A stretch of DNA of 64,000 bases. Source: a virus. This document shows, piece after piece, positions 6,676-63,887 of this stretch (its first letter is position 1; each line of letters opens with the position of its first letter). Both the position numbers and the translations under genes were made by a program. The notes below the pieces were generated by a model. That model was not told the DNA's origin and did not search any database. It saw only the letters and a program-made list of their open reading frames with translations. The stretch covers positions 1-64,000 of IMG/VR virus record IMGVR_UViG_3300042503_000983. One strand, given 5' to 3'.

Positions 6676-6711
6676 ATCTATTTATAAATGATATAATAAG
6701 ATAGATATATT

Positions 6712-10295: not shown

Positions 10296-10312
10296 TAACT
10301 GAATAATAGATC

Positions 10313-10352
10313 TTGCCCACTCTCATTAATTTGAGGGTGGGTAATTTCTTTT
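10313..10352 (+). terminator. Intrinsic terminator after tail tube gene
   Basis: TTGCCCACTCTCA/TGAGGGTGGGTAA stem followed by TTTCTTTT. Confidence 0.8.
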
Positions 10353-10735: not shown

Positions 10736-11067
10736 ATCTTGCTGAGATAGAATCAAGAGTATTTCTTCTGGGATTCTGGAAGAACTATTCTGAACTGGAG
10801 GACTCTATATCAATGCCCGAACTGGTAGCAATACTAGAAGCTAAAAATAGTCAAGAATATGAAAGTAGAAAATTCATGGCAGCTTTACAGGGCGTTGATT
10901 TAGATAGTTCAGATACGTCTAAGAATAAATGGGAAGAGATAAAGGCTAGAGCTTTTAGCAAAGGTGCTACATCGAATCCTAGAGACATTCTTGCCCTTCA
11001 AGGCAAAGCTGCACAACGTGCTGGCTTTGGAATTGGAAATGGCTTGGATTATGAGGTGGTTAATTAA
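10696..11067 (+). CDS. Tail assembly chaperone -1 frameshift extension (GT-like)
   Basis: C-CCA-AAC at 10696-10702 is in correct phase; the -1 frame opens right after TGA 10693-10695 and runs to 11067. Confidence 0.8.
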   Translation, partial: PKRTGSGSSWDELDLAEIESRVFLLGFWKNYSELEDSISMPELVAILEAKNSQEYESRKFMAALQGVDLDSSDTSKNKWEEIKARAFSKGATSNPRDILALQGKAAQRAGFGIGNGLDYEVVN

Positions 11068-20000: not shown

Positions 20001-20474
20001 GCAGACGAGATGGACAATGTTTATTGGGCTCTTTCAGAAGCAAGAAGGCAAGAGATTACAGAGTTAGTAAAAGAAGCAAGAGCCTCTACATCAAAAGCAT
20101 TTTCTGGATATAACAGTGGAGGTCTTGTTGCAGGACCTGGAAATACTGACAGTATATCTGCAATGCTCACCCCTGGAGAATTTGTAGTAAGAAGATCTAT
20201 GGTGGATAAATATGGAATGTCACTGCTTGAAGCAATAAATATGGGTGCTTTTAAAATGCCAAACATGCAGGAGCCTAAGTTTAGCTTTAGTGATTCTGGA
20301 AGATATGATACTGGAATTAGTGATGCAAGAGTTACTGAAACAATGTATAATAATGTATATAACTTAAATGTTAATGTTGCTGGAACAGATGCCTCACCAG
20401 ACGATATTGCAAATGTAGTTATGGCAAAGCTTTCACAGCAAAATAGAGGAAATTTAAGGAGCAATAGATACTAA
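11067..20474 (+). CDS. Tape measure protein, 3135 aa, with internal cargo domains
   Basis: N-terminal TP901-like TMP region, hydrophobic segments, coiled coils, three TD(T/S)xxAMLTPGEFV motifs. Confidence 0.95.
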   Translation: MAGVAKGIIDIQINTGSAAAELKKLQLQINSFNSALSKGNLAQAKFATDYTRDLSKAINSTGVFTSEFVKLNSAAANLDNTLKRGRGTLGQFFSSAFNRNSAAFAETMSLAARRASTLQTQFISTGASAQGMGEALAIRPLDAYASKAAIAAERQALLNTMFRQGTTHMINFGKNVQWAGRQLMVGFTVPLTVLGTVAGKTFMDIEKELVNLKKVYGDAFTTPEEVNQNIAQVRQLAEEYTKYGIAVKDTIGMAANAAASGARNADLIDATRQATRLATLGQMEQQEALKTTIALQSAFRLSGEDLADTINFLNMVENQTVVSLQDLSAAIPRVAPVIKGLGGDVRDMSVFLAAMQEGGVSAEQGANALKSGLASLINPTKAATETLGSFGINLDKIISTNRGDLMGTVFAFGEALKGLDDFSKQQALEKVFGKYQYARLGALFENIVRDGSQASQVLQLMEYDVAALKTTAEKELSAVENALGTQLIGAVERLKLSLEPIGEIFVKLAIPFVNFLTTIVEKFNGLSDGQKKFAAIAAVLVGVVIPAGTMFLGLLINLLGTLGKISHGIAIFVKSLIKGGPIAAIRTLTQSTKYLSIEELEAATAAKQLSSATHIAKAAMLEQATSTDIARIAVAKLTAEYRTLISAQAQAAAFNPAFKTAGMAGAAAGAGKTGSVTVRALRRNAGGPIFVSGETQVPGVGNTDTVPAMLTPGEFVVNKEATAKNYALLDAINSGNKFNKGGMIPGYNLGSMVLRNSQARNQAIKERYLRMFGPEAQAKGISLEERFGNLSLLSRQDRIKNQRALKPKNVTARRTSPNQQRAQQDVQEGPIRNVQSVGNAPQSVIDELTADLVALGAPANVMGEKARLITPTPRYKREGPALEGDTSYGKEFDFNNSLRRGVSNPNLGVARKEMEDLFALNPQLHGTSTPVSPFKHILDEANLDPAHYSRIDSALRSKAIEIVKRSPESHKFSDPEYGRIIVDSLRAANLSTILQERLLSTARIMNTEIGSRSMKRFEPYIKDSIRFSDTGGIHPKFEPVPNAPRGGTYIYTASDGTRVEINAGQSRPIPGRLSYSNQRYNAGRTYNNAHAEVQDFNAGGAVGGMQYFGRMMPNRVVAKNQFEKFSGTKIAESEGHSSRFRSLAGVYEVNGRKMFVKPFQTLQEAQAELIGNAARRAIAGTATPGSRIVRMDGPEGEIFATTAPMIPGMKSGSTLSTKELVKQIPASSMLGDMDATAGNIISTRGGRLATIDPGAAGVKLIRNSKGVFRRATGSEISFGNEATNTGAYTAKAITQVIEKTGASKDFVKMLGDSIAREKLTKAQFTKMYDDAVESAIARVSSFKLPSRIGDRSKLDELARASGYKNADEAYSAIMLRDLTSIRGLSGEIYTSASRFQGVLKANSGTLVPGVGNTDTVPAMLTPGEFVINKDATAKNLPLLQAINNGETRRYGLGDYVNPLGSLTNAQRIKGIRPSASYQQSRSATGYNVFSGMGSAEKIAPVQAALKTGPKYILDAYKESGKAISDAAKPMLTSFKDTSKSVANGANNLKNSIKDYGKWNVVPRMQDAKQAVANTRAAMGTPEAKALRAERMQKAGQGMMMASMIPMMASGFVEDPKQQQMMMAAGGAMAILPMLQQFGPILGGLTLAVGAAAAGFLMFKKDMDNTAKSAAEFGSNLGGAANRMETISAATGYGFASTRSSVQDFRFTEEQSQGAAEMMPFFDTDEGKKLVEDLKGASSEERYEKVASMLTFAIADGMDPKKAESFGSAIAFALDDSLLKSKTVALIRSGRLQSGSQAMISEISKRQAAADSSTVSDFEKAKAEEAKRNNTAGTSSNVKYGGIGLAAGLGAGVAIAASTAKLAAMGGAIGSVVPVVGTAVGAVAGAVVGLVAGIAVYNLAIKNQQKQVAESSKSFGATIQTLKELNNAESLLNEERSKGLITDTQFESSLKQINEMRQVEYERVKKAIDIGASADAQAQGIKDQLVLSGFKGDTAQAVASNVTTDSISNKLFQKDMDKLDQAQKDVVTGIMASTLDGITEENAGAKIGDITDIYAKIADELVTAAADGLTSEEIRAEAEKEQIRKFAESAASNLVNLTPEQQAARANTMASNVSAALPNVNKMGVTTSQLVSGISGVSAEDQAKITESTANVEKFAQLLNSLPEGYDLSLAMEYFSGDNKEQDVDAFYKTQKDAIDKIAELMPKGADAQAIYTALKGPGKDPVKELEAANKKAQEMFDSLGGDEAKVKSVVFESTGYDMTQAEVDAFGALPASEQKSYLASFTIATMSVGNAPTIPQSGAPAEMSAYYKRLEVWKKAVADQQKAIQSVIPQTVVNTDDNGSSSGGTKPPSKKAQAKTFLKDATTNNKVLKNYTNLVKGAATANNIEALSMIPQDVYMNLSTENRKKLIKEMQKQIAYQQRLNAVTVLAETQKATADMKKYSKALNSLGVVITSDIEGMIDQKAFLAMTTEERKAYIAELNKQSVAQAKLAATMALADAKKQTSDMQKYSAALGGLGVAISSDIEGMIDQKAFLAMNTAQRKAYIAELNKQTLAQAKLAAAMEITDMQQQTQEMQNYFNAISPIAAAAGAEVLGMIDTEKYLAMTTTQREEYVKQLTSQLNVQRALDYLTQTSQERTMDAIDAESSAINIKNSALQNSLSGMERENELIQRQISLRNHALDLLAKEEEKINTTYDDRVKALDKVANANDRIAQKDRSRLDLASALASGDISAAAGAASAMQQEEAQFRIEDARAALEAKRQKELESLTVSVNGVMMTRKQITEQISQFGETIYKNEQDMILIQDQLYANSLAQKVLDDQRMKLEQQVLLIKMRQNIEALRAQGLTGQALIDFQNYIDAYNTLQAAAAAADIGNPGAAANTTLGAGGGGGAAAVIAAPTPVAAVTPVTPPPPPPPPPPPPPPPPPPPPPPPPPPPPVYSYYTKAQFNAGIKDSKVSYGNGSEQHYIARKLGYSNPTARTVKADEMDNVYWALSEARRQEITELVKEARASTSKAFSGYNSGGLVAGPGNTDSISAMLTPGEFVVRRSMVDKYGMSLLEAINMGAFKMPNMQEPKFSFSDSGRYDTGISDARVTETMYNNVYNLNVNVAGTDASPDDIANVVMAKLSQQNRGNLRSNRY
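19782..19865 (+). repeat. Poly-proline run (28 Pro) in TMP
   Basis: Uninterrupted CCA/CCG/CCT codons. Confidence 0.95.
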
Positions 20475-21112
20475 TGGTTAGTAGTGCATATTTAAATTCT
20501 AGAAAAAAGTGGGAAAGACCACAAGCAATTATTTTTTCAAATAACTCTGGAGGAATTTTAAATGGTGTTCCACAAATTTCTGGAGTTGAAGGACAAGACT
20601 TCTTAATACTTTCTGACCATAATAGAAGTGACATTTCTTTTAATGCTAATAGAATTGAAAGTAAAAAAAGAATGGTAAATGGTCATATGCGTTCTTATCA
20701 TATTGCAGATAAGATGGAGATATCTTTTTCTTATGACATGCTTCCTTCAAGATCTTACAGCAAAGATCCAGAGTTTGATGAAAATGGAATTCAAACATCA
20801 GACTCTTTGGTTCCAGATACTCCAAAAAATCCAAGACTATTTCCAGCAGAGCACACCTTGATAGAATATACAGCAGATGGCGGTGCTGGAGGATCAGAGC
20901 TATTAGAATGGTACAAAACAAATCCAGGATCATTTTATGCATTTTTATCTTACGACAAGCCTCAAAGTTTTACTGTTGGAAAATATACTAGTTTAAATAA
21001 GTATTCAGAAGTGTTAGAAGTATTTTTCTCAGACTTTAGTTACAACGTTGTCAAAAGAGGTGGGTCTAATCACGATCTATGGGACATATCTATTTCTATT
21101 GAGGAGGTATAA
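20474..21112 (+). CDS. Putative distal tail protein
   Basis: Immediately after TMP; RMVNG.MR and C-terminal WDISISIEEV pattern. Confidence 0.6.
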   Translation: MVSSAYLNSRKKWERPQAIIFSNNSGGILNGVPQISGVEGQDFLILSDHNRSDISFNANRIESKKRMVNGHMRSYHIADKMEISFSYDMLPSRSYSKDPEFDENGIQTSDSLVPDTPKNPRLFPAEHTLIEYTADGGAGGSELLEWYKTNPGSFYAFLSYDKPQSFTVGKYTSLNKYSEVLEVFFSDFSYNVVKRGGSNHDLWDISISIEEV

Positions 21113-24100
21113 TGTTTTCAGATAATGATTTAATTAACCATCTTAAAACAAAGAATAGTGTATCCATAGATTCCTTGGTTATTGCAGAGTGGAATCAAAA
21201 TGATTTTACTAACCTTGAAAACTATGGTAACTATAGGTTTAGACCAGATGGATCAGATGTAGTATATAGAAATATTTATCCAGAATATGATCCACAAGAT
21301 GTTGTAAATTCTTATACCAATGCCTTGGATTCAAACTACATTTCTGAATATAAAACAGAAGACCCAGATGAGCCAGTTACTTTTATTACAAAAGAAAGTG
21401 ATAGAGAATCTTACTACTCTTTAAAGGATTGCATTAAGCCTTTTAGACCTAGATCTGGAATCAACAAGATGTTGTATTTTGGAGAGTCTAATATTAATAA
21501 TACCAAGTTTGTTGACAGCTTTAGATCTGGAAGAAGACCAAGGTATTATTTTTCTTCAAGGTTTGACAACTTTAAATACTGGAACTCTTATAGAAAAGAA
21601 TCTGGTCAAGAGTTTGGAATATCTAGTCAGGTTGCTACATTTTTTACCACTGATAATCCTTCTTACAAAATAAAAGACTGTGCCCCATTTGTTACTTACA
21701 AAAACAAGGTAGCTACAAATAGAATAGTCGTAAAGATGCAAACTAATCTAGCTGATCCAGCAGCAGTTGGTGTTAATGGAGACTCTCTAGTTCCTGAAGA
21801 AATTAGAAGAAACAATTCTTTAATAGCAGATCCAATGAAAGATATATCAAAATCTTCTGTTCCAAAAAAATGGAAAATACAATACCTTGATGAAAACAAT
21901 AACTGGGCTGACGCAATACAGTTTGATGAAACGTCTACTAGAAGAGATGGGTCAAGAATTGTTCCTTGGGATGGATATGTAGAAGTATATTATGGAATAA
22001 AAATTCCAGAAAGATTTAGAACAAACTTTAACCTATATAGCTATTTAGATTCTTTTGATCAATTACCAGACACTAGTTTGTACAATTTTTCTAACAATAC
22101 AAGAGATGGAGATGCATATATAGTTGGAGCCTCATCAACTAATGCAGGAACTCTTTATGTTTGGAGCCAGGAAGATGAAGAGTGGGCAGACTATGATGTA
22201 GAATATGGATTTTCACTATTAGAAGATGACGATACAAAAAGGCTTGGACTAGTTAAAAAAATATTAAATCCAGAATACTTTAACATTGAAGGTACTGACA
22301 TCTATAGAGAATTTGCCTTTGTTAAGGGAATTAGGCTAGTTGTTGAAACTATGTATGCTCCAAATAAAACTTTTGATTTAATTGAAATATCTCCAAGACT
22401 AAAGGTTAACATAACTGATTATGTTTTAGATTATGAAATTACTAAAAACATTATGGCAACAGACTATGGTCTTCCCGTTGGAGGTCTTGTTGCTTCAACT
22501 GGAAACGTATCCTTGTCAAACCATGACGGATCTTTTACAGAGTTAAATGTTTTTGACGAAGAGGATAAAACTGGGAGCATTATTGCAAACAATCTTAAGC
22601 CACAAATTAAATTTGACTTTTATGAAGCAGTTCTTAATGTTAATGGATATGATAAATTTATTCCACTAAAAACATTTTACTCAGAAAATGCAGCTATTGC
22701 AACCAGTGGCATGGAAGATATATCTTTAGACTTAAGAGATGCATATTTTATTCTAGAATCAAATAAAGCTGCACCAATATTTTTACAAAATTGTACCCTA
22801 ACCATGGCAGCAGCACTTCTTCTTGATAACATAGGTTTTAGTAACTATGTCTTTAAAAATATAACCTCTGTAAACGATCCTGTAATACCTTTTTTCTTTG
22901 TTGAACCAGACACTTCAGTTTCAGAAATTTTACAAAGACTAGCACAGTCTACTCAAACTGCAATGTTTTTTGACGAGTACAATAACTTTGTTATCATGCC
23001 AAAAGAATATTTGATGCCAGACATCTCTATTAGAGATAATAATTTAGCAATATCAGAAAGACTCACAAACTTATATGGTCAAAAAACTGATAACTTTGTT
23101 CCAAATATTGAGGCTATTGCAGGATTTGAAACAAACATTTTAAACGATGGTCAAATTAACTACACTACTAGATATATTCAAAGAGAAGTTTCAAGACTAG
23201 AGCAAGCAAGTCTTAGCCTAAGTGAAAGAACCTATGGATATAAGAGCTCTATCCTTTGGGAGCTTGGAGATCAAAAAGAATTAAGAACTATAAATCAGCC
23301 AACCGCTAATACAGGGTATGCACTTGGAGCTGTAACTTTAAATACAAGCTTACCAGACTTTGCTCCGTATGTAAGAAATCATCAAATTGTAAACAACACA
23401 ATTGATGTTGGAGAAAGTGCGTTTTGGCTACCAAGGTTTCAAGGATACTTGTATGCAAATGGAGAAATTATAAGATATGATGCTCAACAGTATCACGTTG
23501 ATGCCCCGTCTGCTTCTGCTACAAATGGTCTTGTTTGGATAACAAGTAATAATGAGTATCAAAAGTATTTTTCAAACTTGGTATTTAATGGAAAAATGAC
23601 TCTTACAGGGCTGCTTAGAATCTATACAGAACCTTACTACGAGAATGCTTCTGGATCAAATTTTGAGAACCTTGAAGAAAATGTTAGATATAAAAACGGA
23701 GATGTTAGGTCTCATGGTAGAGGTCAGTTTGGTACTGGAATAGTAAATCACTTTGCAGGACTAAATCCTTACTGGGAAGATCCAGACAATAGAAGGTCTT
23801 TTAGAATGGACTCAGGAAATATTTATAGCACTATTCCTGCAAAATTTTTTCCCAACTTGGAACTTGAAGTGCCAATTACAACTATAATACCTTATGAATT
23901 TTATACAGACAGTGAGTTTGTTCAAGGTATTTTAAATCCTAGACTATCCTATGGAAGAGGAAGTGAGCAGCACTATATTGCCAAAGCAATGGGATACACT
24001 GATCCATTAGCATACAGCGTAAGGGCTGCAGAAATGGTAGGGGTATATAGAAATTTAAGCCCTTATAGAAAAAATGTAATTACTGGAATGATAATAAGGG

Positions 24101-25968
24101 CTAATTCTAGTACACAAAATGTTTTTGGATACATGTCAGGATTTAATATGACTCAAATTTCTGATGAGCCACCAAGGTACAACTACGCCATGCCACTTGG
24201 AGATGATCCAATTTCTAAAAGCCAATCCCTAGTTCATGGAAAAATTGCAAACTTTATGAAACAATCAACAAGAACAGAAGGATTTTCTAGCTATAGTCAG
24301 CAAGACACTGCTGGAATTCAGTCCTCAGCTTTAGTTTTTTCAGGACCATATCCAGTACCATCTTTAGCAAACCCAGTATTTAACAGAACAGAACTATCTG
24401 CTACTACTGAAACAGATTTAGTAAACTATGTTTATAAAAGTTTAGATACAGATTATACTCATGTTGGAACTAGAATGAGAATTATTGGAAAACAAAAAGA
24501 TGACGATACTCAGTCTGCTTTAAATTCTATAAAACTATTTGATATTGATCAAAATAGTTCCACAGGAGGATTAAATGTAAAAGAGCTTTCTGGTGGAGCT
24601 GGAGGAATTGGATACATGCTAGATCCAATAACAAACTCTGGATACTACCTTGAAATTGCATCCCTTTCTTCAGATGTTTTAAAAGAGTTTACTAATAGTG
24701 GCTCAGTATCTTCTGGCTCAGTATCTTCTGGCTCAGTATCTTCTGGCTCAGTATCATATGAACCAGTTATTGAAAACATAATTTTTTATAAAGTTGAAAA
24801 TAGACCATACCTTAGACAGAAAACTGGAAAAACAAATATTGCAGTTCCTAAAAAGCTTTGGGGGTCTCTTGCAAGAATTCTTGTAGATGAAGGAAAGTTT
24901 ATAGGATCTGACAGGGCAACTTCTCAAGAAATTCCAGTGTACGATCTATCTTTGGATGTACAAATTTCTAGAAATGGATCAAGAATATCAAGAATAGATT
25001 TTTCCATATACTTAAACAATGTATTAATTGGAATAGTAAGTGACGAAACTCCATTACAAATGCCAGTTGATGGATTAAAAACTGGACTATTTACTAGAGG
25101 TTCAAGCAGATGTATGTTTGAAAATATTTATGCCCTAAAGAATATAAAAGAAAACGACACCCCTTTGCTTGAAAAAATTGAAGGAGCATTTTCTGCAGAA
25201 TCTCTGAGAAAGTATTCCCTTCCAGCAGCAATTCAAAGAACATACATGTCTTCCATTGGAACAGAGACAAGACCAACTGTAGATTTTTATTTTGAAGAGT
25301 TTGGCACAATTTTAAGAGAATGTGCATATTTTAATATTAAGTATGACCAAGCTTATCCAGCATTAATTGCAAAAATAGTTCCCCCATTTACTGTTGAAAA
25401 ATCATATGAAATTTCTGGATTTTTGCCAGGATCATATGGAGCAGAGTTTTTATTATTCAATACAACAGACAAGGCAATAGACTTGAGTGAAAATTCTACC
25501 AATAGAATTATGATTCAAGGAATAACTTTTACTCAAAATATATCAAATGTCCTTACTGTAGACGATTACTTTAAGGAACTATCGAACTTCTCTGATCCAG
25601 TTATTACAGAAAATAATTTAATAATTTCTCCAGAAAGGTCAGAAAAAATTTATGATAACATTAAGAACAGTAGGGCTATTTATGGAAACAAATCATTTTC
25701 TTTAGATTCTGTTTATATTCAAAATGAAGACTCTGCAAAAGATGTTATGAAGTGGATTCTAGATAAAACTATTAAACCAAGAAAGGTTTTTGAAATAGAT
25801 ACTTTTGGAACTTCTCATATACAACTTGGAGATATCGTTAAGATAGATTTTGACTTACCAGAAGGAGTTAAGCTAGTGGATGAGAACAAGAAGTTTGTAG
25901 TAATATCTGCTACATACAACAGATCTTCTTCGGATGTTCAAAGTCAATTAAGGTTGATGGAGGTTTAA
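21112..25968 (+). CDS. Large tail-tip/baseplate hub protein, 1618 aa
   Basis: Synteny; hub-like segments AMFFDEYNNF and IQLGDIV. Confidence 0.75.
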   Translation: MFSDNDLINHLKTKNSVSIDSLVIAEWNQNDFTNLENYGNYRFRPDGSDVVYRNIYPEYDPQDVVNSYTNALDSNYISEYKTEDPDEPVTFITKESDRESYYSLKDCIKPFRPRSGINKMLYFGESNINNTKFVDSFRSGRRPRYYFSSRFDNFKYWNSYRKESGQEFGISSQVATFFTTDNPSYKIKDCAPFVTYKNKVATNRIVVKMQTNLADPAAVGVNGDSLVPEEIRRNNSLIADPMKDISKSSVPKKWKIQYLDENNNWADAIQFDETSTRRDGSRIVPWDGYVEVYYGIKIPERFRTNFNLYSYLDSFDQLPDTSLYNFSNNTRDGDAYIVGASSTNAGTLYVWSQEDEEWADYDVEYGFSLLEDDDTKRLGLVKKILNPEYFNIEGTDIYREFAFVKGIRLVVETMYAPNKTFDLIEISPRLKVNITDYVLDYEITKNIMATDYGLPVGGLVASTGNVSLSNHDGSFTELNVFDEEDKTGSIIANNLKPQIKFDFYEAVLNVNGYDKFIPLKTFYSENAAIATSGMEDISLDLRDAYFILESNKAAPIFLQNCTLTMAAALLLDNIGFSNYVFKNITSVNDPVIPFFFVEPDTSVSEILQRLAQSTQTAMFFDEYNNFVIMPKEYLMPDISIRDNNLAISERLTNLYGQKTDNFVPNIEAIAGFETNILNDGQINYTTRYIQREVSRLEQASLSLSERTYGYKSSILWELGDQKELRTINQPTANTGYALGAVTLNTSLPDFAPYVRNHQIVNNTIDVGESAFWLPRFQGYLYANGEIIRYDAQQYHVDAPSASATNGLVWITSNNEYQKYFSNLVFNGKMTLTGLLRIYTEPYYENASGSNFENLEENVRYKNGDVRSHGRGQFGTGIVNHFAGLNPYWEDPDNRRSFRMDSGNIYSTIPAKFFPNLELEVPITTIIPYEFYTDSEFVQGILNPRLSYGRGSEQHYIAKAMGYTDPLAYSVRAAEMVGVYRNLSPYRKNVITGMIIRANSSTQNVFGYMSGFNMTQISDEPPRYNYAMPLGDDPISKSQSLVHGKIANFMKQSTRTEGFSSYSQQDTAGIQSSALVFSGPYPVPSLANPVFNRTELSATTETDLVNYVYKSLDTDYTHVGTRMRIIGKQKDDDTQSALNSIKLFDIDQNSSTGGLNVKELSGGAGGIGYMLDPITNSGYYLEIASLSSDVLKEFTNSGSVSSGSVSSGSVSSGSVSYEPVIENIIFYKVENRPYLRQKTGKTNIAVPKKLWGSLARILVDEGKFIGSDRATSQEIPVYDLSLDVQISRNGSRISRIDFSIYLNNVLIGIVSDETPLQMPVDGLKTGLFTRGSSRCMFENIYALKNIKENDTPLLEKIEGAFSAESLRKYSLPAAIQRTYMSSIGTETRPTVDFYFEEFGTILRECAYFNIKYDQAYPALIAKIVPPFTVEKSYEISGFLPGSYGAEFLLFNTTDKAIDLSENSTNRIMIQGITFTQNISNVLTVDDYFKELSNFSDPVITENNLIISPERSEKIYDNIKNSRAIYGNKSFSLDSVYIQNEDSAKDVMKWILDKTIKPRKVFEIDTFGTSHIQLGDIVKIDFDLPEGVKLVDENKKFVVISATYNRSSSDVQSQLRLMEV
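24699..24755 (+). repeat. Perfect 15-bp tandem repeat x3.8 encoding (SGSVS)n
   Basis: TGGCTCAGTATCTTC repeated without mismatch. Confidence 0.95.
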
Positions 25969-32944: not shown

Positions 32945-32973
32945 GGTGGGGGAGAAGTACTCCCCCACCCTTT
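32945..32973 (+). terminator. Hairpin between SSB and dnaE
   Basis: GGTGGGGGAG/CTCCCCCACC 10-bp stem followed by CTTT. Confidence 0.7.
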
Positions 32974-32990
32974 ATAACTGAAAGGTTAAA

Positions 32991-48861: not shown

Positions 48862-48870
48862 TTTAATTGG

Positions 48871-48906
48871 TACTCCCTCATTATAAACATGGGGGAGTAT
48901 CTTTTA
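48871..48906 (+). terminator. Hairpin/terminator after ssb
   Basis: TACTCCCTCAT/ATGGGGGAGTA followed by TCTTTT. Confidence 0.7.
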
Positions 48907-51260: not shown

Positions 51261-51403
51261 TGTTTCTTACAAAGATGATTAGGTTTGCAGAAAAAATTGG
51301 CATGGACGTAGACGAACTTATGGAAATGACAGTCCTTGATGCCATAATGAAAATAGAAGATACAAGAACAATGTGGGCAGAATTAAAAAAGGATATTGGT
51401 TAA
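51260..51403 (+). CDS. Hypothetical protein (47 aa)
   Basis: TAATG coupling; fills the gap before the ftsZ promoter. Confidence 0.55.
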   Translation: MFLTKMIRFAEKIGMDVDELMEMTVLDAIMKIEDTRTMWAELKKDIG

Positions 51404-51417
51404 GGTATAATACTTAT

Positions 51418-52356
51418 ATGAATAAAATAATTGACATAAAGGTAATAGGATGCGGTGGCGGTGGAGTAAATGCCGTTAATAGCATGATCACTTCTGGTCT
51501 GTCTGGAGTAGAGTTTATTGGAATAAATACAGATGCTCAAGCACTTCTACCAAGCTTAGCAGATGTAAAAATTGATATTGGAAAAGATAGAACTCGTGGT
51601 CTTGGTGCAGGTGCAGATCCAAACATTGGTAGGCTTTCTGCAAAAGACAGTGTAAATGAAATATCCGAAGTTGTTCATGGTGCAGACGTTGTTTTTGTAA
51701 CTGCTGGAATGGGTGGTGGAACTGGAACTGGTTCTGCTCCAATAGTTGCTAACTGTGCTAAAAAGGCTGGTGCATTAACTGTAGGCGTTGTAACTACCCC
51801 ATTTGCATTTGAGGGAAAGAAAAGAATGAACAATGCCTTAGAAGGAATTAATAGTTTTAGTAAGGAAGTTGACACCCTTATAGTTATTCCAAATGAAAAT
51901 TTAATTCAGATGCTTGATCCAAATATTTCTATGGAAGATGCATTTAAAGAGGCTGATGACGTTCTTCTTAAAGCAGTAGCAGGTATTTCAGATCTAATTA
52001 CTACACCTGGTCAAATTAATATTGACTTTGCAGATATAAAAAGGGTAATGAAAGATGCTGGTTCTGCTTTTATGGGAATTGGATACGCAGAGGGAGAGGA
52101 TCGTGCTGAAGTTGCAGGTAATAAAGCAATTACTAGCCCTATTCTTAATGTTGATTTGCATGGTGCTACTGGTGTCCTAATTTCAATCGCATCCTCTGGT
52201 CAAATAAAGATGCAAGAAGTAAATAAAATTGCATCCCTTGTAGGAGATAAGGCACACGAAGATGCTGATATTATTTTTGGAACAGTTTTAGATGAAGATT
52301 TAGAAGACGGAATTTTAGTAACGGTAGTAGCTACAGGATTTGTTGGCAGTGAATAA
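51418..52356 (+). CDS. ftsZ: FtsZ homologue lacking the C-terminal linker and peptide
   Basis: GGGGVNAV, NTDAQAL, GLGAGA, AGMGGGTGTG, PFAFEG, NIDFAD, VVATG then stop; TATAAT 6 nt before ATG 51418. Confidence 0.95.
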   Translation: MNKIIDIKVIGCGGGGVNAVNSMITSGLSGVEFIGINTDAQALLPSLADVKIDIGKDRTRGLGAGADPNIGRLSAKDSVNEISEVVHGADVVFVTAGMGGGTGTGSAPIVANCAKKAGALTVGVVTTPFAFEGKKRMNNALEGINSFSKEVDTLIVIPNENLIQMLDPNISMEDAFKEADDVLLKAVAGISDLITTPGQINIDFADIKRVMKDAGSAFMGIGYAEGEDRAEVAGNKAITSPILNVDLHGATGVLISIASSGQIKMQEVNKIASLVGDKAHEDADIIFGTVLDEDLEDGILVTVVATGFVGSE

Positions 52357-53094: not shown

Positions 53095-53997
53095 ATGCTA
53101 TTTGATAATACAGGAAAAAATGTTGTAAACAATTTAAATGAAAACTATATTAGAAAAACCCTTGTTCCGTTAAAACACCACTTTAATTTTTCTGAAACCA
53201 AACTATTGTACGATGAAAAAGATTTATATTTTAACATGAGCTTAATCTCTTTTGAAAATGAACTTCACTATGCTGTTAGAGGAGGTCACAAACATATTGG
53301 AAAAATGTATTTACATCCAGAGTTTACTAGCACTGTTCATGTTGGAGTAGTTGACGAAGCTATAAAAAATAGAAGGCAGATAAATGTTACATTCCCTAAA
53401 GTAAAAAATGGAACACTTGGAATGGAAGACCCTAGAATATTTGAATGGAAAAACAAACTATTCTTTTCTGGAGACATTCCTTTTAACTTAAGAGGCAGAA
53501 GTCAAAAAAATGCTTTTGTAAATATTGAAACTAATGAGTGTGAAGTTTTTGTAGACCCACTCAATAGAAAGATGAGTAAAAATTGGATGCCATATGTAAA
53601 TGAAGATAATCTTTATTTTGTTATTGATGTTTTACCAACAAGAATTTTAGACACAAAAACAAGGAAGGCTCAGGCTTATAATGATAAGGTTGTTACAAAC
53701 ACACCAGTCTATGGTGGTCCAAGAATTATAAACATAGATGGGATTAAAACTTCAATCGTTCATGGAAGAGCTAACAATGCTTACTGGCACTCTATAGCTC
53801 AGTGGGATGATAATTGGAATTTAAAAATTTCTGATCCTTTTTATTTTACCAAGCCTGGAGTTGAATTTTGCACAGGATACGAAGTTCATAATGGAAAACT
53901 ATATTTTACATATTCAGAGTATGATGATGGAGTTGTGTTGTGCAGCATAGATCTTGATTCATTTTTAAATAGTGCTATTTGGAGCAGAAATGTTTAA
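53095..53997 (+). CDS. Beta-propeller glycoside hydrolase/phosphorylase-like protein (GH130/GH43-like)
   Basis: GMEDPRIF, KNWMPY, VEFCTG. Confidence 0.65.
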   Translation: MLFDNTGKNVVNNLNENYIRKTLVPLKHHFNFSETKLLYDEKDLYFNMSLISFENELHYAVRGGHKHIGKMYLHPEFTSTVHVGVVDEAIKNRRQINVTFPKVKNGTLGMEDPRIFEWKNKLFFSGDIPFNLRGRSQKNAFVNIETNECEVFVDPLNRKMSKNWMPYVNEDNLYFVIDVLPTRILDTKTRKAQAYNDKVVTNTPVYGGPRIINIDGIKTSIVHGRANNAYWHSIAQWDDNWNLKISDPFYFTKPGVEFCTGYEVHNGKLYFTYSEYDDGVVLCSIDLDSFLNSAIWSRNV

Positions 53998-54754
53998 AGA
54001 AATAGATTATAACAAGCACTTTGTTATTGGTACACCGCTCGTTGGATGGAAAGTTGACAGAAAAGAACACCTTGCCTGGATTCAAGATAGTAAAGAAATA
54101 TTGGAAAGGTTTCCAAATGCAAAATTTTTTGCTGCTCTTGAGTTAGACTCTAGAGGAGAACAAGTTTTTTATGAAATTATAGATAGACTAAAAGATATAG
54201 ATGGAGAGTATTGGACGTACTCAATAAATGATAAGGAAAGTATAGTTACCTCTTATAATAGATGGATAAGAATTGAAACTGGTAGAAATCTTATTAGAGA
54301 GTTTGCACAAAGACATAGAAAAATGTCAGGACATCATTGGGGAGAAAATTCTTCAAAAGAAAATAAGGGTGCAATAAACTATGATGCAATTTTATATGTT
54401 GATTCAGATACAATAGTTAATGTAGAAATTATTGAAAAAATGATGGAAATAGATCATCCAGTTGTAAGCGTAAACGTACCAGCTTATGGTTTAAAAGGTA
54501 AAGTTATAAATGAAAATCCAAGAATAGAAGAGCATTGGAATACTGCTGGAATGTTATTAGTAAATTCTCCAGCTTTTTATGACCTTTCTTGGGGGTATAA
54601 TGCTATAGAAAATTTGAGTGACGATCCAACTTTTCAAAACCATGCAGAAAGACTTGGATATGGGCAAACTTGGGTTAGGAAAGACATCAATGCAAAGCAT
54701 ATTGGAAAATTACTTCCAGTAGAAAATAGAAGAATTCCTCCTAGAGATCTATAG
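53990..54754 (+). CDS. GT-A fold glycosyltransferase-like protein
   Basis: GRNLIR, ILYVDSD (DxD), TAGMLL, SDD, late His. Confidence 0.7.
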   Translation: MFKEIDYNKHFVIGTPLVGWKVDRKEHLAWIQDSKEILERFPNAKFFAALELDSRGEQVFYEIIDRLKDIDGEYWTYSINDKESIVTSYNRWIRIETGRNLIREFAQRHRKMSGHHWGENSSKENKGAINYDAILYVDSDTIVNVEIIEKMMEIDHPVVSVNVPAYGLKGKVINENPRIEEHWNTAGMLLVNSPAFYDLSWGYNAIENLSDDPTFQNHAERLGYGQTWVRKDINAKHIGKLLPVENRRIPPRDL

Positions 54755-54772
54755 ATTTCCTTAGGATGGGAA

Positions 54773-54801
54773 ACGACCTAGACAAGTCGTAAAACTGTCT
54801 A
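54773..54801 (+). ncRNA. Compact H-type pseudoknot, copy 1
   Basis: ACGAC-C-TAGACA-A-GTCGT-AAAAC-TGTCTA. Confidence 0.6.
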
Positions 54802-54827
54802 ATTTTTATTTATGATAAACTAGATAG

Positions 54828-55337
54828 ATGCACAAAAAGTTTTTAGCCTTTATATTTTCAATAGTCTTAGTTTTTTCTTATATTCCACCAGCAAATGCTT
54901 CTTCAGATTCTATAAGATACAAGACGGAAAGTAATCAAACAATTAAAAAGGGTAAGTGGACAACTTTAAGATTTGATGGTGGAAAAACAGCAATTCAGGG
55001 TAATGGAAAAAGATCTTTGTTTTGTTATCAAGCTGGTATTGATACAAAGGGAAAGAAAAAGCCTTCATATATTAAGTTAAGAATAACTAGAATAGTTCCA
55101 GGACCAAATGATCCTAGTGCAACAAATACATACTTCTTTACAGATAAGCCAGGAAGTAAGTTTGTTGCATCTAATTGTTGGAACATTGTAACTAAGCATC
55201 CAGTAGTTGTTCAAATAAGAATTGTTGGCGGAAGTAAAACATATAACTCTGACATAAGACAATTTAAAATGTGGACACCTAATGCAGAATATCCATCAGA
55301 CTTTTCTGACTTTATGCCTGAAACAACCATTAATTAG
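54828..55337 (+). CDS. Secreted beta-rich protein
   Basis: Signal peptide MHKKFLAF...PANA; leaderless start. Confidence 0.7.
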   Translation: MHKKFLAFIFSIVLVFSYIPPANASSDSIRYKTESNQTIKKGKWTTLRFDGGKTAIQGNGKRSLFCYQAGIDTKGKKKPSYIKLRITRIVPGPNDPSATNTYFFTDKPGSKFVASNCWNIVTKHPVVVQIRIVGGSKTYNSDIRQFKMWTPNAEYPSDFSDFMPETTIN

Positions 55338-55398
55338 TTTATTAGTAATGATATAATAGATTTGTTAGATACGTCTAACGAGGAGTCTATGCAATAAA

Positions 55399-56961
55399 TT
55401 GAAGAAAATCTTTTCCTACCTACTATTAATTCCAATGATTTTAATTGGTACGATGTTTTTAGCATCTCCAATTACACAAGCAAATACTCCTCTTACTTGT
55501 AATATGTCTACTATTACTGGTGATGACGATGGATCATTTGAAATGCTATTGCCTTTTTCTTTAAAGCTTGGACCAACAGAATATAATAGAATTTATTACA
55601 GTACTAATGCAACTGTAACCTTTGGTCAGCCAGATGGAACTTTTCACGACTACCCTCAGACCCCTTCTGTTTCTGTAGCAGGTAGAGACTGGGTATCTTT
55701 TGGAGAAGGTGCATATACTTCATACGGATATAATCAAAACTCTTTTTGTATAGAATGGTCAGTTCGCCCATTTCCACAATCAAGTGGTCCACTAACTCAA
55801 ATTAGATTGGTTGTAAATAAATTTACTAATGGTAACTGGCATGGTGAAATTACTACAATGACAGACCTTCCAGGAGATGCAAGAAGAGGAATTAGGTACG
55901 AGTATGGTCAGCCAGTTGTAACTATGGAAGCAGCCTTTGACGTTGGCAACGGAGGAATTCCAGTTGAAGTTGAACCTGCACCAACCCCATCAAGTTTTAC
56001 AGAACCACCTGCAATTCCAACTCAATGTTGGGATGGTAGTACGGTTTATTCTCCTACCACTTGCCCTACAGAACCAGCCCCTACTGAATGTTGGGACGGG
56101 TCTTCTGTTACTTGGAGAGATACTTGCCCTCCTACACCACCAGATGTAGTTTGCTGGAACGATGAGGTGGTTCCTTGGAATCAATCCTGTCCACAAGTTC
56201 CACCATTAGTTGAGTGTTGGAATGGAACATCTGTAAACTGGAACGAACAATGTCCAGTTCAGCCAACACCTACGCCCAGCCCTGAGCCACAGCAGTCAGA
56301 ATCACCAGAGCCAACAGTAGAACCGTCACCCCAGCCATCAGAGCCAAGCCCAGAGCCGTCAGAACCTGTTGTGCAACCTTCAGAAACTTCTTCACCTACT
56401 CCAACTCCTTCTTTAAGTCCCTCAGAATCTCCGTTGCAGCCTGTAGCACCTGTTGTAACTCCATCCCCAACTCCTGAGCCAGAGACTTCATCTCCAGAAC
56501 CATCAGTTCCAGACTCAGATGAGAGTCCATCTCCTGATCCAAGTCCTTCATCCACTGATCTTCCATCTAATAATAATATCATAGATGGTCTAACAGCAGA
56601 GGAATCAGCTGCTTTAAATGAACTACTTACAGAGTATGGTCCAATGGATGCAATATCTTTTGAAGACTTTGAAGCATCAGGTCTTGACTATGAAGATTTG
56701 CCACCAGATCAGCCAGTTATGTTAGATAACGGAGTTATTCTTACAGCAGAAGTTGCGGATGCAATTGAGATGTTTGAAAATCCCTCTGAATTACTACTAA
56801 CAGTTTTAACTGATCCAGGTAAGGCATTAAAAGCTTTTGCTAATGTTGGTGCAGACATGACACCAGAACAACGCAAAGAATCGCAAGCTGTAGTTGTTGC
56901 TTCTGTAATTGTTGGACAATTAATAGCATCAACTAATTTAATAACAGGGAGGATAAGATAA
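55399..56961 (+). CDS. Exported surface protein: NIDO-like domain, four Cys repeats, Pro/Ser/Glu/Thr stalk, C-terminal hydrophobic segment
   Basis: Signal peptide; DDGSF...LPF...YYSTN; (CWxG..V....CP) x4. Confidence 0.75.
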   Translation: MKKIFSYLLLIPMILIGTMFLASPITQANTPLTCNMSTITGDDDGSFEMLLPFSLKLGPTEYNRIYYSTNATVTFGQPDGTFHDYPQTPSVSVAGRDWVSFGEGAYTSYGYNQNSFCIEWSVRPFPQSSGPLTQIRLVVNKFTNGNWHGEITTMTDLPGDARRGIRYEYGQPVVTMEAAFDVGNGGIPVEVEPAPTPSSFTEPPAIPTQCWDGSTVYSPTTCPTEPAPTECWDGSSVTWRDTCPPTPPDVVCWNDEVVPWNQSCPQVPPLVECWNGTSVNWNEQCPVQPTPTPSPEPQQSESPEPTVEPSPQPSEPSPEPSEPVVQPSETSSPTPTPSLSPSESPLQPVAPVVTPSPTPEPETSSPEPSVPDSDESPSPDPSPSSTDLPSNNNIIDGLTAEESAALNELLTEYGPMDAISFEDFEASGLDYEDLPPDQPVMLDNGVILTAEVADAIEMFENPSELLLTVLTDPGKALKAFANVGADMTPEQRKESQAVVVASVIVGQLIASTNLITGRIR

Positions 56962-57158
56962 TGAAGAAATGGTTAAAAGATAAGTTTCGTGAAACACTAA
57001 ACCAAACATTTACCCTTCTTGGTATGTTCGTAGCATGGGCAGTCCTTGATGGGTCTGCTAAAACAGTAGTAGGATGGGCAATTGTAGTATGCGTAATCAT
57101 ATGGTTATTTTCAATGAAATTCAGAGAACAAGAGGAGGAAAAAAATGACAAAGAATAA
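56961..57158 (+). CDS. Small two-TM membrane protein
   Basis: Two hydrophobic helices; coupled to the upstream gene. Confidence 0.7.
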   Translation: MKKWLKDKFRETLNQTFTLLGMFVAWAVLDGSAKTVVGWAIVVCVIIWLFSMKFREQEEEKNDKE

Positions 57159-57423
57159 AGAAGAAGTTATTGGATCAACATCAGTAACAAATGTCTGGAA
57201 CATATTTTTTAGAATAGTTGCAGTATTTGCTGCATCTGGACTTTCAATCATTGGTGCAGGTTCTTTAGTTGGAATTGATACACTAACAGCCGTAATTATG
57301 GCTGGAACTCTTGGAGTTGCAACGGTAGTAGAAAAACTTGCTAGAGCTTTTCTAGATGATGGCAAGTTAAGTGCTAAAGAAATTAATTCAGCATTTAGTT
57401 CAGTAGACAAGAAAGCAGAATAG
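57145..57423 (+). CDS. Holin-like membrane protein
   Basis: Two TM segments plus charged tail; directly before the M23 peptidase. Confidence 0.6.
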   Translation: MTKNKEEVIGSTSVTNVWNIFFRIVAVFAASGLSIIGAGSLVGIDTLTAVIMAGTLGVATVVEKLARAFLDDGKLSAKEINSAFSSVDKKAE

Positions 57424-57486
57424 TAAGTAGGCTATAATAGAGTAGGGGAGTCCTCCAAAGGGCTCCCTTATTTTATAAAAAAGGAA

Positions 57487-57885
57487 ATGATTCAAATGGG
57501 TTCACCAATTGTTGGAGGTAAGGTTACAACACCTTACAAGAAGCTTGGAAAAATGTGGAGCAAAGGCTATCACACAGGCGTAGACTATGCTTGCAAAGTT
57601 GGAACAGACATTGTTGCTGTTGCTGATGGCAAGATTGAAAATGCTACCTGGGGAGCCAGCTATGGCACTCAGTTAGTCCAGAAAGTTGAGGGTGGATGGG
57701 TAATCTATGCACACCTTTCAAAGGCTCTAGTTAAGGCTGGAGACACAGTAAAGAAGGGGCAGCATATTGCTGAGTCTGGTAATACAGGCAACTCTTCAGG
57801 TCCTCATCTTCACTTTGAAATGAGAGATAATATTAGATGGAGTGCAGGTAAAGACATTGATCCTGCTAAGATTCTTGCATCTTAA
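57487..57885 (+). CDS. M23 peptidase (putative endolysin)
   Basis: HTGVD, YAHL, SGNTGNSSGPHLHFE. Confidence 0.92.
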   Translation: MIQMGSPIVGGKVTTPYKKLGKMWSKGYHTGVDYACKVGTDIVAVADGKIENATWGASYGTQLVQKVEGGWVIYAHLSKALVKAGDTVKKGQHIAESGNTGNSSGPHLHFEMRDNIRWSAGKDIDPAKILAS

Positions 57886-57903
57886 TATATCAAATTAACA
57901 ATT

Positions 57904-57925
57904 GCCCCTAGAAATAGGGGCTTTT
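57904..57925 (+). terminator. Intrinsic terminator
   Basis: GCCCCTA-GAAA-TAGGGGC-TTTT. Confidence 0.85.
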
Positions 57926-58001
57926 GTATTTAATAAAACTATTTATCATTTTGTTATAATAAAAACTTGATTTTATTAAGTATTAGTGGTATTCTAGAAT
58001 A

Positions 58002-58541
58002 ATGCGTATCAGAACCTTGGTTCCGATTGCCCTTGTTGCGGTTCTTGCAATTGCATCCCTACCAACAAGCCACAGTCAGACCAGTGCTAATGCACCGCAA
58101 AATGTAGCAAGTATAATAAATCAAGATAGAAGTATCAGGATTGCTGAACTTGCAACATATGATAAAGAAAAGAAGAAAGAAAAAACTAGAGGTAATGAAA
58201 AAGCTTCTAGATCCAAGAGAGCTAACTCTCTTGCTGCTAAAGCTAATCAAGCTTTTGCAAAGTCCTATATGGAGTCTAAATACTCTTGGGGCGAAGACCA
58301 GCACTCTTGCCTTGTGAATCTATGGAATCGTGAAAGTGGGTGGAGGCATACTGCTGACAACCCAACTTCAAGTGCCTATGGAATTCCACAAGCCTTGCCT
58401 GGAAAGAAAATGGCAAGTGCAGGGGCAGATTGGAGAACAAATCCAGAAACACAAATCAAATGGGGTCTAAAGTATATTAAGCATAGATACGAGACCCCCT
58501 GTGGAGCATGGGGTGCATTCAAGAAAAAGGGCTGGTATTAA
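58002..58541 (+). CDS. Secreted lytic transglycosylase-like protein
   Basis: Signal peptide; LWNRESGW, SSAYGIPQ, TQIKWGLKYI..RY..PC.AW. Confidence 0.88.
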   Translation: MRIRTLVPIALVAVLAIASLPTSHSQTSANAPQNVASIINQDRSIRIAELATYDKEKKKEKTRGNEKASRSKRANSLAAKANQAFAKSYMESKYSWGEDQHSCLVNLWNRESGWRHTADNPTSSAYGIPQALPGKKMASAGADWRTNPETQIKWGLKYIKHRYETPCGAWGAFKKKGWY

Positions 58542-58558
58542 TTTACTAGTTTAATTAG

Positions 58559-58588
58559 ATGTCCTGAGCAAAGACATTAAACTGCTCA
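58559..58588 (+). ncRNA. Compact H-type pseudoknot, copy 2
   Basis: ATGTC-C-TGAGCA-AA-GACAT-TAAAC-TGCTCA. Confidence 0.6.
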
Positions 58589-58595
58589 TTTAAAC

Positions 58596-58624
58596 TTGAC
58601 AAAGCAAAGGATATGGTGTAAAAT
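58596..58624 (+). promoter_or_regulatory. Sigma70-type promoter
   Basis: TTGACA-17-TAAAAT, with ATG 6 nt downstream. Confidence 0.8.
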
Positions 58625-58630
58625 CTAGGT

Positions 58631-58804
58631 ATGGATAAATTAAAAATTATTATTGAAGAACCAAGTGGGTCAAGACGATCATTTTTTTATAACGTAAAAG
58701 ATGAGGCAGAAGCAAAAGATATTGTAAAAGGTATTAAAAAAGACCTTAAGCCAAACTTTAGCCTAGCCTCTTGGAGCTATAAAGAAGACAAGGATAAGAA
58801 GTGA
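58631..58804 (+). CDS. Hypothetical protein (57 aa, leaderless)
   Basis: GTGA overlap with thioredoxin. Confidence 0.6.
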   Translation: MDKLKIIIEEPSGSRRSFFYNVKDEAEAKDIVKGIKKDLKPNFSLASWSYKEDKDKK

Positions 58805-59067
58805 AGACGGAAGTAATTGACTTTTGGGCTACATGGTGTGGTCCTTGTAAACTTATGAATCCAATTCTTGACGAGGTAGAAAAAGAATATTCTGATTTAA
58901 CCATTACAAGAGTTGATATTGATTCTGACAAAGATATGGTTGAGCAGTATAAAATTCAGTCAGTTCCTACATATGTTATTCTAAAAGATGGCAAAGAAGT
59001 AGATCGTATTATTGGTGCAAAGCCTAAGTTTGCTTTCTTAAAGAGGGTGTTCCCAGAAAATGGCTGA
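58801..59067 (+). CDS. trxA: Thioredoxin
   Basis: DFWATWCGPCK, IQSVPT. Confidence 0.95.
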   Translation: MKTEVIDFWATWCGPCKLMNPILDEVEKEYSDLTITRVDIDSDKDMVEQYKIQSVPTYVILKDGKEVDRIIGAKPKFAFLKRVFPENG

Positions 59068-59527: not shown

Positions 59528-59600
59528 TCCCCAATAGCTCAATCGGCAGAGCGTCAAACTGTTAATTTGAATGTTCCTAGTTCAAGTCTAGGTTGGGGAG
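59528..59600 (+). tRNA. tRNA-Asn(GTT)
   Basis: Acceptor TCCCCAA/TTGGGGA; anticodon arm TCAAA-CTGTTAA-TTTGA; T loop TTCAAGT; no encoded CCA. Confidence 0.93.
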
Positions 59601-59664: not shown

Positions 59665-59737
59665 CCCCGATTAGCTCAGTGGATAGAGCGATAGGTTTCT
59701 ACCCTACAGGTCAGGAGTTCGAATCTCTTATCGGGGA
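59665..59737 (+). tRNA. tRNA-Arg(TCT)
   Basis: Acceptor CCCCGAT/ATCGGGG; anticodon loop TTTCTAC; GTTCGAATC; no encoded CCA. Confidence 0.92.
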
Positions 59738-62959: not shown

Positions 62960-63036
62960 TGGTGGGGTGGGTCAGGCTCGAACTGACGACTACTGAATTA
63001 TGAGTTCAGGGCTCTAACCAACTGAGCTACCACCCC
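62960..63036 (-). tRNA. tRNA with CAT anticodon, probably Ile2 (lysidine) rather than Met
   Basis: GGGGTGG/CCACCCC-A-CCA; CTGAA-CTCATAA-TTCAG; lacks initiator features. Confidence 0.88.
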
Positions 63037-63654: not shown

Positions 63655-63684
63655 AGTGTTCCCATTCTATCATTGAGGTCTGAC

Positions 63685-63712
63685 AAAAAGGGGCAAGGAC
63701 CTTCCCTGCCCC
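63685..63712 (-). terminator. Intrinsic terminator
   Basis: GGGGCA...TGCCCC stem followed by TTTTT on the - strand. Confidence 0.7.
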
Positions 63713-63725
63713 CTTCCAGCCAGCC

Positions 63726-63887
63726 TTAACGGGACTTTACTACCTTGTTACGGCGTAGTGATGTTAGATTGACGTTGTGGATAAAATGTCCTAGACCGTC
63801 ACGAATTACTACACGTTCTGTGTCTCCCCACTTTTCAAGTGATGTGAAACGTTGCTTCTTCAGAGTACGCATTTGCTCTCTTGTCAT
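63726..63887 (-). CDS. Small basic protein (53 aa, not in ORF track)
   Basis: RBS AAGGAG; MTREQMRTLKKQRF...VVIRDGLGHF; own promoter and terminator. Confidence 0.75.
   Translation of the reverse strand: MTREQMRTLKKQRFTSLEKWGDTERVVIRDGLGHFIHNVNLTSLRRNKVVKSR

Follow-up and report, generated by a model that had tools for sequence, protein, structure and literature searches.

The window analyzed here is the first 64,000 bases (G+C 35.7%) of a 72,942-base pair (bp) virus contig in IMG/VR (record IMGVR_UViG_3300042503_000983), DNA of which was found in lake-water metagenome runs. On its plus strand, two short elements at 54774..54801 (site 1) and 58559..58588 (site 2) lie past the stop codons of protein genes, and we show that both are copies of a conserved H-type RNA pseudoknot carried by many unrelated tailed phages. 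The gene upstream of site 1 (53972..54754, plus strand) is an open reading frame (ORF) of 260 amino acids (aa) ending in TAG at 54752-54754, the product of which matched no Pfam family and gave only a weak match to phrog_1574. The gene upstream of site 2 (58002..58541, plus strand) ends in TAA at 58539-58541 and encodes a transglycosylase with an SLT domain (Pfam PF01464, E 5e-5; phrog_12661, E 1.3e-38).

The initial annotation wrote the elements as ACGAC-C-TAGACA-A-GTCGT-AAAAC-TGTCTA (54773-54801) and ATGTC-C-TGAGCA-AA-GACAT-TAAAC-TGCTCA (58559-58588), in which hyphens separate the 5' arm of the first stem (S1), loop 1, the 5' arm of the second stem (S2), the junction, the 3' arm of S1, loop 3, and the 3' arm of S2. 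Both strings are present exactly as written with 11 of 11 pairs of Watson-Crick type in each, and the distance of 17-18 nucleotides (nt) past a stop codon that had been given for them is 18 nt at site 1 and 17 nt at site 2. Two details of the fold needed revision. The proposed 5-bp S1 fits site 2, while at site 1 its first pair, A54773-U54790, is not retained in relatives. For the proposed 6-bp S2, five pairs hold and the sixth (U-A) is conserved only on its U side: among 98 copies listed, in which this U had been fixed by the search pattern, 65 have U-A, 8 have U-G and 25 are unpaired, and the position is T in all 82 matches of a descriptor that left it free. Since the partner of this U varies, loop 1 is better written C-U. 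In site 1, S1 thus pairs 54774-54777 with 54786-54789, loop 1 is C54778 and U54779, S2 pairs 54780-54784 with 54796-54800 plus U54779-A54801, the junction base is A54785, and loop 3 is 54790-54795 (UAAAAC). In site 2, S1 pairs 58559-58563 with 58573-58577, loop 1 is C58564 and U58565, S2 pairs 58566-58570 with 58583-58587 plus U58565-A58588, the junction is A58571 and A58572, and loop 3 is 58578-58582 (UAAAC).

Between the stop codon and site 1, nested folding predicts a hairpin, P0 (UUUCCU / GGGAAA, 6-nt loop; 54756..54773, plus strand). Its sequence is conserved in the displayed site-1 relatives, with one variant seen by eye (L043), and its pairing is unproven because there is too little variation for covariation. 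An inverted-repeat hairpin considered upstream of site 2 was dropped, because by eye it is largely a direct repeat around a palindrome. Site 2 is followed at 58596..58624 (plus strand) by a candidate sigma-70-type promoter, TTGACA-17-TAAAAT, which is a consensus match only (11/12). Site 1 is followed by a T-rich spacer (54802..54827, plus strand) that reaches to the ATG at 54828 and contains the string TGATAAACT, which may resemble an extended -10 box, comparable to the TGATATAAT strings of other gaps; a promoter scan listed nothing between site 1 and the next gene. A position just before the next promoter, as first proposed for both elements, is therefore found at site 2 and neither at site 1 nor in the family at large, which as often precedes a ribosome-binding site (RBS) with a start codon, or a tRNA gene directly. 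Two more copies lie past the window on the minus strand (67653-67683 and 66210-66239), both after minus-strand genes, giving four in the contig.

With a loose H-type geometry, 5 matches were obtained on the plus strand of the contig, whereas 60 dinucleotide shuffles gave 1.3 +/- 1.5. When the geometry was restricted to that of the two sites (loop 1 of 1 nt, junction of 1-2 nt, loop 3 of 5 nt), a choice made post hoc after the sites had been seen, there were 2 matches against a mean of 0.15, and none of the 60 shuffles reached 2. Judging from predicted folding energies, thermodynamics alone would not have revealed either element, and the main proof of the pseudoknots is comparative.

Conservation of the fold and its carriers

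Relatives of the two loci were collected from IMG/VR by means of the two upstream proteins, so that rows were chosen by position and not by structure. Among relatives with enough downstream sequence, the pseudoknot is present within 85 nt past the gene end in 26 of 42 for the site-1 gene, and after the gene in 36 of 49 for the site-2 gene. Both stems change with retained pairing. In site-1 relatives, CGAC/GTCG of S1 is replaced by CATC/GATG and TAGACA/TGTCTA of S2 by TGGATA/TATCCA; in site-2 relatives, S1 occurs as ATGTC, GTGTC (with a G-U pair) and CATC/GATG, and S2 as TGAGCA, TGAGTA (G-U) and TGAGTA/TACTCA. The downstream contexts of relatives with the knot are 3 distinct ones for site 1 (4 crude 20-mer groups, of which two represent one context with a shift of 1 base) and at least 8 for site 2 (12 crude 20-mer groups). 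Downstream genes thus vary, and the knot travels with the gene upstream.

When 607 kb, comprising the contig and the relatives' loci, was searched with a descriptor, 82 copies were found, all 82 on the sense strand, with 12 S2 types and 21 distinct sequences, and 0-1 copies in shuffles. In an alignment of 30 rows, two-sided changes were observed at 4 of 6 S2 pairs and 5 of 5 S1 pairs, and 94.8% of cells were paired, against 21-32% when the partners were slid by 1-3 columns; this alignment mixes rows taken by gene position with descriptor rows that demand pairing, and its S2 counts lean towards pairing. Because some of its rows are descriptor-derived, independent and unbiased scans were made.

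Three scans of IMG/VR, which returned at least 133, 121, and 126 stretches, respectively, each fixed one part of the motif and left another free, and all their counts are lower bounds. In scan (a), S2 and AAAC were fixed and S1 was free, giving at least 145 matches, at least 140 of them unique. Among the 140 unique matches listed, S1 reaches three or more contiguous pairs in 131 and four or more in 105. For the 98 unique copies with a gap of 7, deduplicated on a 34-nt window and aligned, the three core S1 pairs form in 97, 96, and 96 of the matches listed, and two of these three positions show all four Watson-Crick types; the fourth pair forms in 76 and two flanking control positions in 32 and 35. 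In scan (b), S1 (AGTC/GACT), C-U and AAAC were fixed and four S2 pairs were free, giving at least 108 unique copies. Among those listed, all four S2 pairs form in 78 of 108 and three in another 23; when the partners were shuffled 200 times, all four formed in 32.9 copies on average and in 44 at most. More than 15 different S2 sequences were found, some differing by transversions, and since pairing is retained through this diversity, S2 is a helix and not a conserved word. In scan (c), both stems were fixed and loop 3 was free at 3-10 nt, giving at least 106 unique copies; among the matches listed, loop 3 ends in AAAC in 104 of 106 and is 5-10 nt long with a mode of 6. The wobble strand bias is modest: S2 has 42 G-U against 21 A-C, and S1 has 8 against 7.

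In the resulting consensus, S1 comprises 3-5 bp and has C-G as its closing pair (5' arm N(2-4)C, 3' arm GN(2-4)), loop 1 is C-U, S2 comprises 5 bp with A-U as its closing pair (5' arm NNNNA, 3' arm UNNNN), the single junction base N is mostly U or A and almost never G, loop 3 is N(1-6)AAAC, and the base after S2 is often A. Among the matches listed in scan (a), 96 of 105 copies have a single junction base, which is T in 48, A in 39, and C in 9. The compensatory change that the initial annotation read from two sites is thus seen in both stems, in the relatives as well as collection-wide, and the structured RNA family proposed there has gained many further covarying homologues, which across the family lie on the sense strand just past stop codons. 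When the pattern of scan (a) was applied to 596 Gb of bacterial and archaeal genomes, 121 matches were obtained, mostly intragenic, and only 17 had an S1 of at least four pairs. Since the cellular matches are few and mostly intragenic, the motif is essentially a phage element.

Short BLAST queries led to nine GenBank phages in which the element was read: Cyanophage S-RIM4 (Kyanoviridae; host Synechococcus), Paracoccus phage ParMal1 (Autographiviridae; host Paracoccus), Mycobacterium phage Labelle (host M. smegmatis), Lactobacillus phage KC5a (host L. gasseri), Staphylococcus phage StB12 (host S. hominis), Bacillus phage Page (host B. megaterium; a deviant copy), Arthrobacter phage Amigo (host Arthrobacter), Lentibacter phage ICBM1 (host Lentibacter), and crAss-like phage cr7_1 (no recorded host; two tandem copies). 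The recorded hosts belong to four bacterial phyla. Among the genome contexts are those of T4-like, crAss-like and siphovirus genomes as well as that of one member of the Autographiviridae. Two phages of Streptomyces, BillNye and Jay2Jay, which are the closest cultured phages by DnaE (51% and 50% identity, respectively), have no copy of the degenerate pattern. In cr7_1 (locus L365, approximately 1757-1830), no ORF separates the tandem copies and the upstream one has the S2 variant TTAGCA/TGCTA; another locus, L223, has three tandem copies within approximately 170 nt, again without an intervening ORF.

A search of the whole window against Rfam at the gathering score returned three tRNAs only and thus no known family of the kind that would have removed the novelty. 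At E values up to 10, Rfam 15 gave nothing on either site (window 54400-58900) and nothing on the motif in 20 other loci. Seven annotated GenBank records with the element have no feature annotated at its spot. In the full-text literature searched, no description was found, and a list of 10,006 candidate RNAs, in a paper available to us in part (PMC10690425), may hold the motif as an unnamed hairpin. A compact cis-acting H-type pseudoknot is a known kind of element; the present family is absent from Rfam 15, new and very widespread, and its tie to stop codons is unusual for such a pseudoknot.

Placement at stop codons and candidate functions

Counts of stop distance, RBS, tail and heptamer were made on the 130 of 140 unique copies passing a looser S1 filter (three pairs, 1-3 junction bases), and those of stop distance and heptamer on the 107 of these 130 with an upstream ORF of at least 30 codons; all refer to the matches listed. 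The distance from the stop codon to the C of loop 1 is 9 nt in 24 copies, 10 nt in 10, 11 nt in 7, 12 nt in 12, and 13 nt in 8. It is thus 9-13 nt in 61 of 107 and shorter than 9 nt in only 5, which is equivalent to a spacer of 5-9 nt, with a mode of 5, between the stop and a 4-bp S1. An ORF-free count of stop triplets in the second set, using the 101 of 108 copies with at least three of four S2 pairs, gave 28, 14, 19, 14, and 19 at the same offsets against approximately 7 elsewhere. The upstream stop is TAA in 76 of 107.

A spacer of 5-9 nt is that of frameshift and read-through pseudoknots. Together with the sharp lower limit and an architecture like that of such knots (short loop 1, one junction base, A-rich loop 3), this spacing suggests a signal that touches the ribosome while the stop codon is in its A site, altering pausing, recycling or post-termination scanning, or shielding stop-proximal RNA; the four phyla of the carriers' hosts also point to a universal partner such as the ribosome. 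We consider this reading rather unlikely, since a slippery X XXY YYZ heptamer was found at 3 of 107 loci against 3.25 expected, which is no excess, the next in-frame stop follows at a median of 7 codons (n = 107) with no conserved extended frame, 76 of the stops are TAA, and the stop distance is greater at both window copies and at approximately one third of all copies. A lower limit with a decaying tail is, moreover, also expected from simple compaction. A broader variant, in which the knot would be a universal phage device at the mRNA entrance that alters termination and may respond to a ligand through its conserved junction, seems slightly less likely still.

The sequence behind the knot bears on several other explanations. 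Among the 130 copies listed, the first 9 nt are G-poor and A/U-rich with A at position +1 in 72%, and an RBS with a start codon lies within 100 nt downstream in 59, at 8-38 nt in 41 of these. Such an arrangement would suit an operator for a phage or host RNA-binding protein, on which gene 32-like nucleation would spread over the A/U-rich spacer to the next RBS. As expected of a protein site, both stems are free to vary but the bases of the loops and the junction are strictly conserved, and in three Firmicute phages the knot lies between portal/minor-head genes and the scaffold and major-capsid genes, that is, it precedes genes for scaffold and capsid. In the part of a T4 review used here (PMC3014915), the T4 gene 32 operator is likewise described as a compact pseudoknot with coaxial stems, behind which lies an A+U-rich tract. 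However, the downstream genes share nothing, a tRNA gene comes next in 16 of 133 loci, and the knot is linked to the upstream and not to the downstream gene. No candidate protein common to the carriers came to light, no search aimed at one having been made, and we regard an operator as doubtful.

Behind 23 of the 130 copies there is a T tract (at least 6 of 8), compared with 2 of 130 at a control offset, and the knot fills the gap before promoters at all four copies of the contig, which could be taken to indicate a non-canonical transcription terminator or pause signal. Four knot-less site-2 relatives (L086, L087, L089 and L090) have a G+C-rich hairpin directly past the stop codon instead, with a T tract after it in three (L086, L087 and L090) and none in L089, so that canonical terminator hairpins take the place of the knot. 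Termination nevertheless appears improbable to us: 107 of 130 copies have no T tract, A prevails at +1, and an intrinsic-terminator scan of the window lists neither site, neither having the G+C-rich hairpin with a U tract by which such terminators are recognized. Knots also occur inside apparent operons (between ribonucleotide reductase and glutaredoxin genes in Lentibacter phage ICBM1, and among the portal, scaffold and capsid genes mentioned above) and 4-13 nt before tRNA genes, where there is no room for an intervening promoter. One carrier, ParMal1, is filed in Autographiviridae, and phages of this family typically transcribe with their own RNA polymerase.

The tRNA genes that follow the knot in 16 of 133 loci listed are on the same strand, 15 of them at 4-13 nt and one at 33 nt, and 12 of the 16 are tRNA-Asp. 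This neighborhood suggests a tRNA-like minihelix, whose stacked stems would imitate an acceptor arm and thereby provide RNase P or the CCA enzyme with a signal for punctuating the transcript. Behind S2, copies of the first set show an enrichment of A, C, and C at successive positions (74, 47, and 36 of 105 listed, respectively), ACCA is the commonest 4-mer (10 of 105 listed), and many site-2 relatives read TGCTCACCA and then a tRNA gene. In the independent second set, however, there is no CCA: the top 4-mers are ACTA, CATT and TATT, and ACCA is outside the ten commonest. Five of the ten ACCA cases stand directly before a tRNA gene in seemingly related loci (L125, L140, L149, L170 and L222), the element is called by neither ARAGORN nor the Rfam tRNA model (RF00005), and it has no equivalent of a T-loop, all of which make a tRNA mimic quite improbable.

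Variable stems with invariant loop and junction bases, as in the preQ1-I riboswitch, and a length of approximately 28 nt, close to that of small pseudoknot riboswitches, would also be expected of a small ligand-sensing aptamer or a self-cleaving RNA acting on many genes. At one locus, L101, a sub-threshold match to Hammerhead_3 (L101:179-237; 32.1 bits, E 6e-4, below the gathering score of 48.5) lies directly downstream of a knot copy. Against this, the searches of the motif itself at E up to 10 gave no riboswitch or ribozyme of Rfam, the junction base varies among T, A and C, and several copies per genome stand after unrelated genes and are tied to the upstream gene; an aptamer or ribozyme is accordingly the least probable of the functions considered. 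An attC-like recombination site was rejected, because the order of its core motifs does not fit the attC consensus.

We tentatively favor a role of the knot as a non-terminating 3' stabilizer or punctuation mark that would be set flush against the terminating ribosome, which we hold to be quite possible though short of probable. The knot would fold once it is transcribed, sitting at the shortest stop distance (5-9 nt) that would spare it from unwinding by the ribosome, and with such a flush placement no bare RNA would separate the structure from the translated region; the placement in these two steps is observed. The knot would then cap or punctuate the upstream cistron, and 3'-to-5' exonucleases would halt at it. 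The new 3' end might come from RNase P at a following tRNA, from an endonuclease in the G-poor and A/U-rich spacer, or from later termination.

Several observations agree with this stabilizer role. As would be expected of it, the structure is on the sense strand, at the point where a cistron ends. Because neither stem is a G+C-rich hairpin with a U tract, the knot could act within an operon and let transcription continue. In Arthrobacter phage Amigo, the gene for single-stranded DNA-binding protein (SSB) is followed by the knot and, after approximately 3 nt, by tRNA-Gly, so that a cut by RNase P would leave an mRNA ending at the knot. The canonical hairpins of the four knot-less relatives occupy the same slot as the knot, which we count in favor of a stabilizer. 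In the part of the T4 review used here, RNase E sites are described just past the stop codons of gene 32 and rpsO, where ribosomes shield them (PMC3014915). Such stop-proximal sites would be a weak point that a flush-placed structure would remove, and this would give a logic to the placement.

Other points weigh against a stabilizer. No RNA 3' end has been seen for any copy, and the nested folds of the two window copies are weak (-5.0 and -5.5 kcal/mol; z -1.3 and -1.6). These copies, at 17-18 nt from their stops, are outside the 5-9 nt range. For protection of a 3' end, a plain G+C-rich hairpin would serve equally well, and the strict C-U, the AAAC and the two closing pairs are left unexplained. 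For the Firmicute knots before scaffold and capsid genes, it is the downstream message that would be expected to need protection. Finally, the spacing would also fit a purely ribosome-directed role.

Other contig features and significance of the element

The three tRNA genes of the window are at 59528-59600 (plus strand), 59665-59737 (plus strand), and 62963-63036 (minus strand); in many relatives, the tRNA cluster begins directly past the site-2 knot, against 1 kb further on in the window. Ordinary terminators composed of a G+C-rich hairpin and a T tract are located at 57904-57921, 6650-6690, 10310-10345, 32945-32975, and 48870-48905, and often precede promoters of the TGATATAAT type. In the minus-strand gene block, TTGTCAGACCYCT stands directly before a TGnTAnnnT box resembling an extended -10 in at least 8 gaps (window 63655-63744; contig 64001-72942), and these gaps look like a putative phage-specific promoter/operator set for that block. 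Another string, CTGCGCCC(C), recurs in minus-strand gaps near 66.1, 67.6, 69.8, 70.9, and 72.0 kb of the contig; it adjoins the DnaA-box-like TGTGGATAA or TTTTCCACA several times, two of its occurrences are just past the minus-strand knots, and similar strings follow the knot in several IMG/VR loci.

A full-length FtsZ/tubulin homologue is encoded at 51373-52356 on the plus strand (Pfam Tubulin, E 2e-46; FtsZ_C, E 4e-29) and adjoins a methyltransferase gene. The structural region contains two very long plus-strand ORFs at 11067-20474 and 21112-25968, which code for 3135 and 1618 aa, respectively.

If the present view of the family is true, a 28-nt fold that neither Rfam 15 nor the phage annotations examined contain would be among the commonest non-coding elements of tailed phages. 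Since it would mark gene ends and cassette borders, the element would be useful for phage annotation, and it could serve as a compact natural part for insulating or stabilizing cistrons in synthetic operons. If the knot acts on the ribosome, phage genes would be subject to a new and general level of control exerted at their stop codons. The fixed stop spacing poses a directly testable question about the fate of the mRNA and the ribosome at the end of a phage gene.

Comparison with known systems

The operator of gene 32 in T4 and T2 shares with the present family a compact H-type pseudoknot of phage origin with coaxial stems, after which an A+U-rich tract extends to the RBS; as described in the part of the T4 review used here, it is located in the leader of one gene, 67 nt before the start codon, and serves autoregulation by gp32 (PMC3014915). 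According to the available part of the RNA survey (PMC10690425), Rfam has no model for the gene 32 knot. The present family differs in that it is found at the stop codons of many unrelated genes, in several copies per genome, and in phages far from T4. Its downstream genes are diverse, so that it is not a leader element of SSB genes, and in Amigo the knot follows the SSB gene.

The frameshift and read-through pseudoknots of luteoviruses, mouse mammary tumor virus (MMTV) and murine leukemia virus (MuLV) have a loop 1 of 1-2 nt, a junction base, an A-rich loop 3 and a spacing of 5-9 nt, and the present knots are like them in all of these features. In contrast to the viral knots, the decoded codon is here an ordinary stop, with neither a slippery heptamer nor an extended frame. 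From 3' stabilizing hairpins and intrinsic terminators, with which the family shares the slot directly past the stop codon, it is distinguished by weak nested stems, conserved loop bases, the lack of a U tract in most copies, and its occurrence within operons and before tRNA genes.

The preQ1-I riboswitch (RF00522) is similar in size, is also of the H-type, and has a variable first stem and an A-rich loop 3 ending in C. Unlike it, the present element gave no RF00522 match at E up to 10, has a longer S2 and a single junction base, and is located in 3' untranslated regions after unrelated genes with no link to queuosine genes. The PeSL elements of T4-type phages are likewise short intergenic elements repeated at the borders of genes and cassettes. 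However, PeSL is a promoter with a stem-loop that is defined by its DNA sequence in one phage group, whereas the element described here is a covarying RNA fold found across phage families and host phyla.

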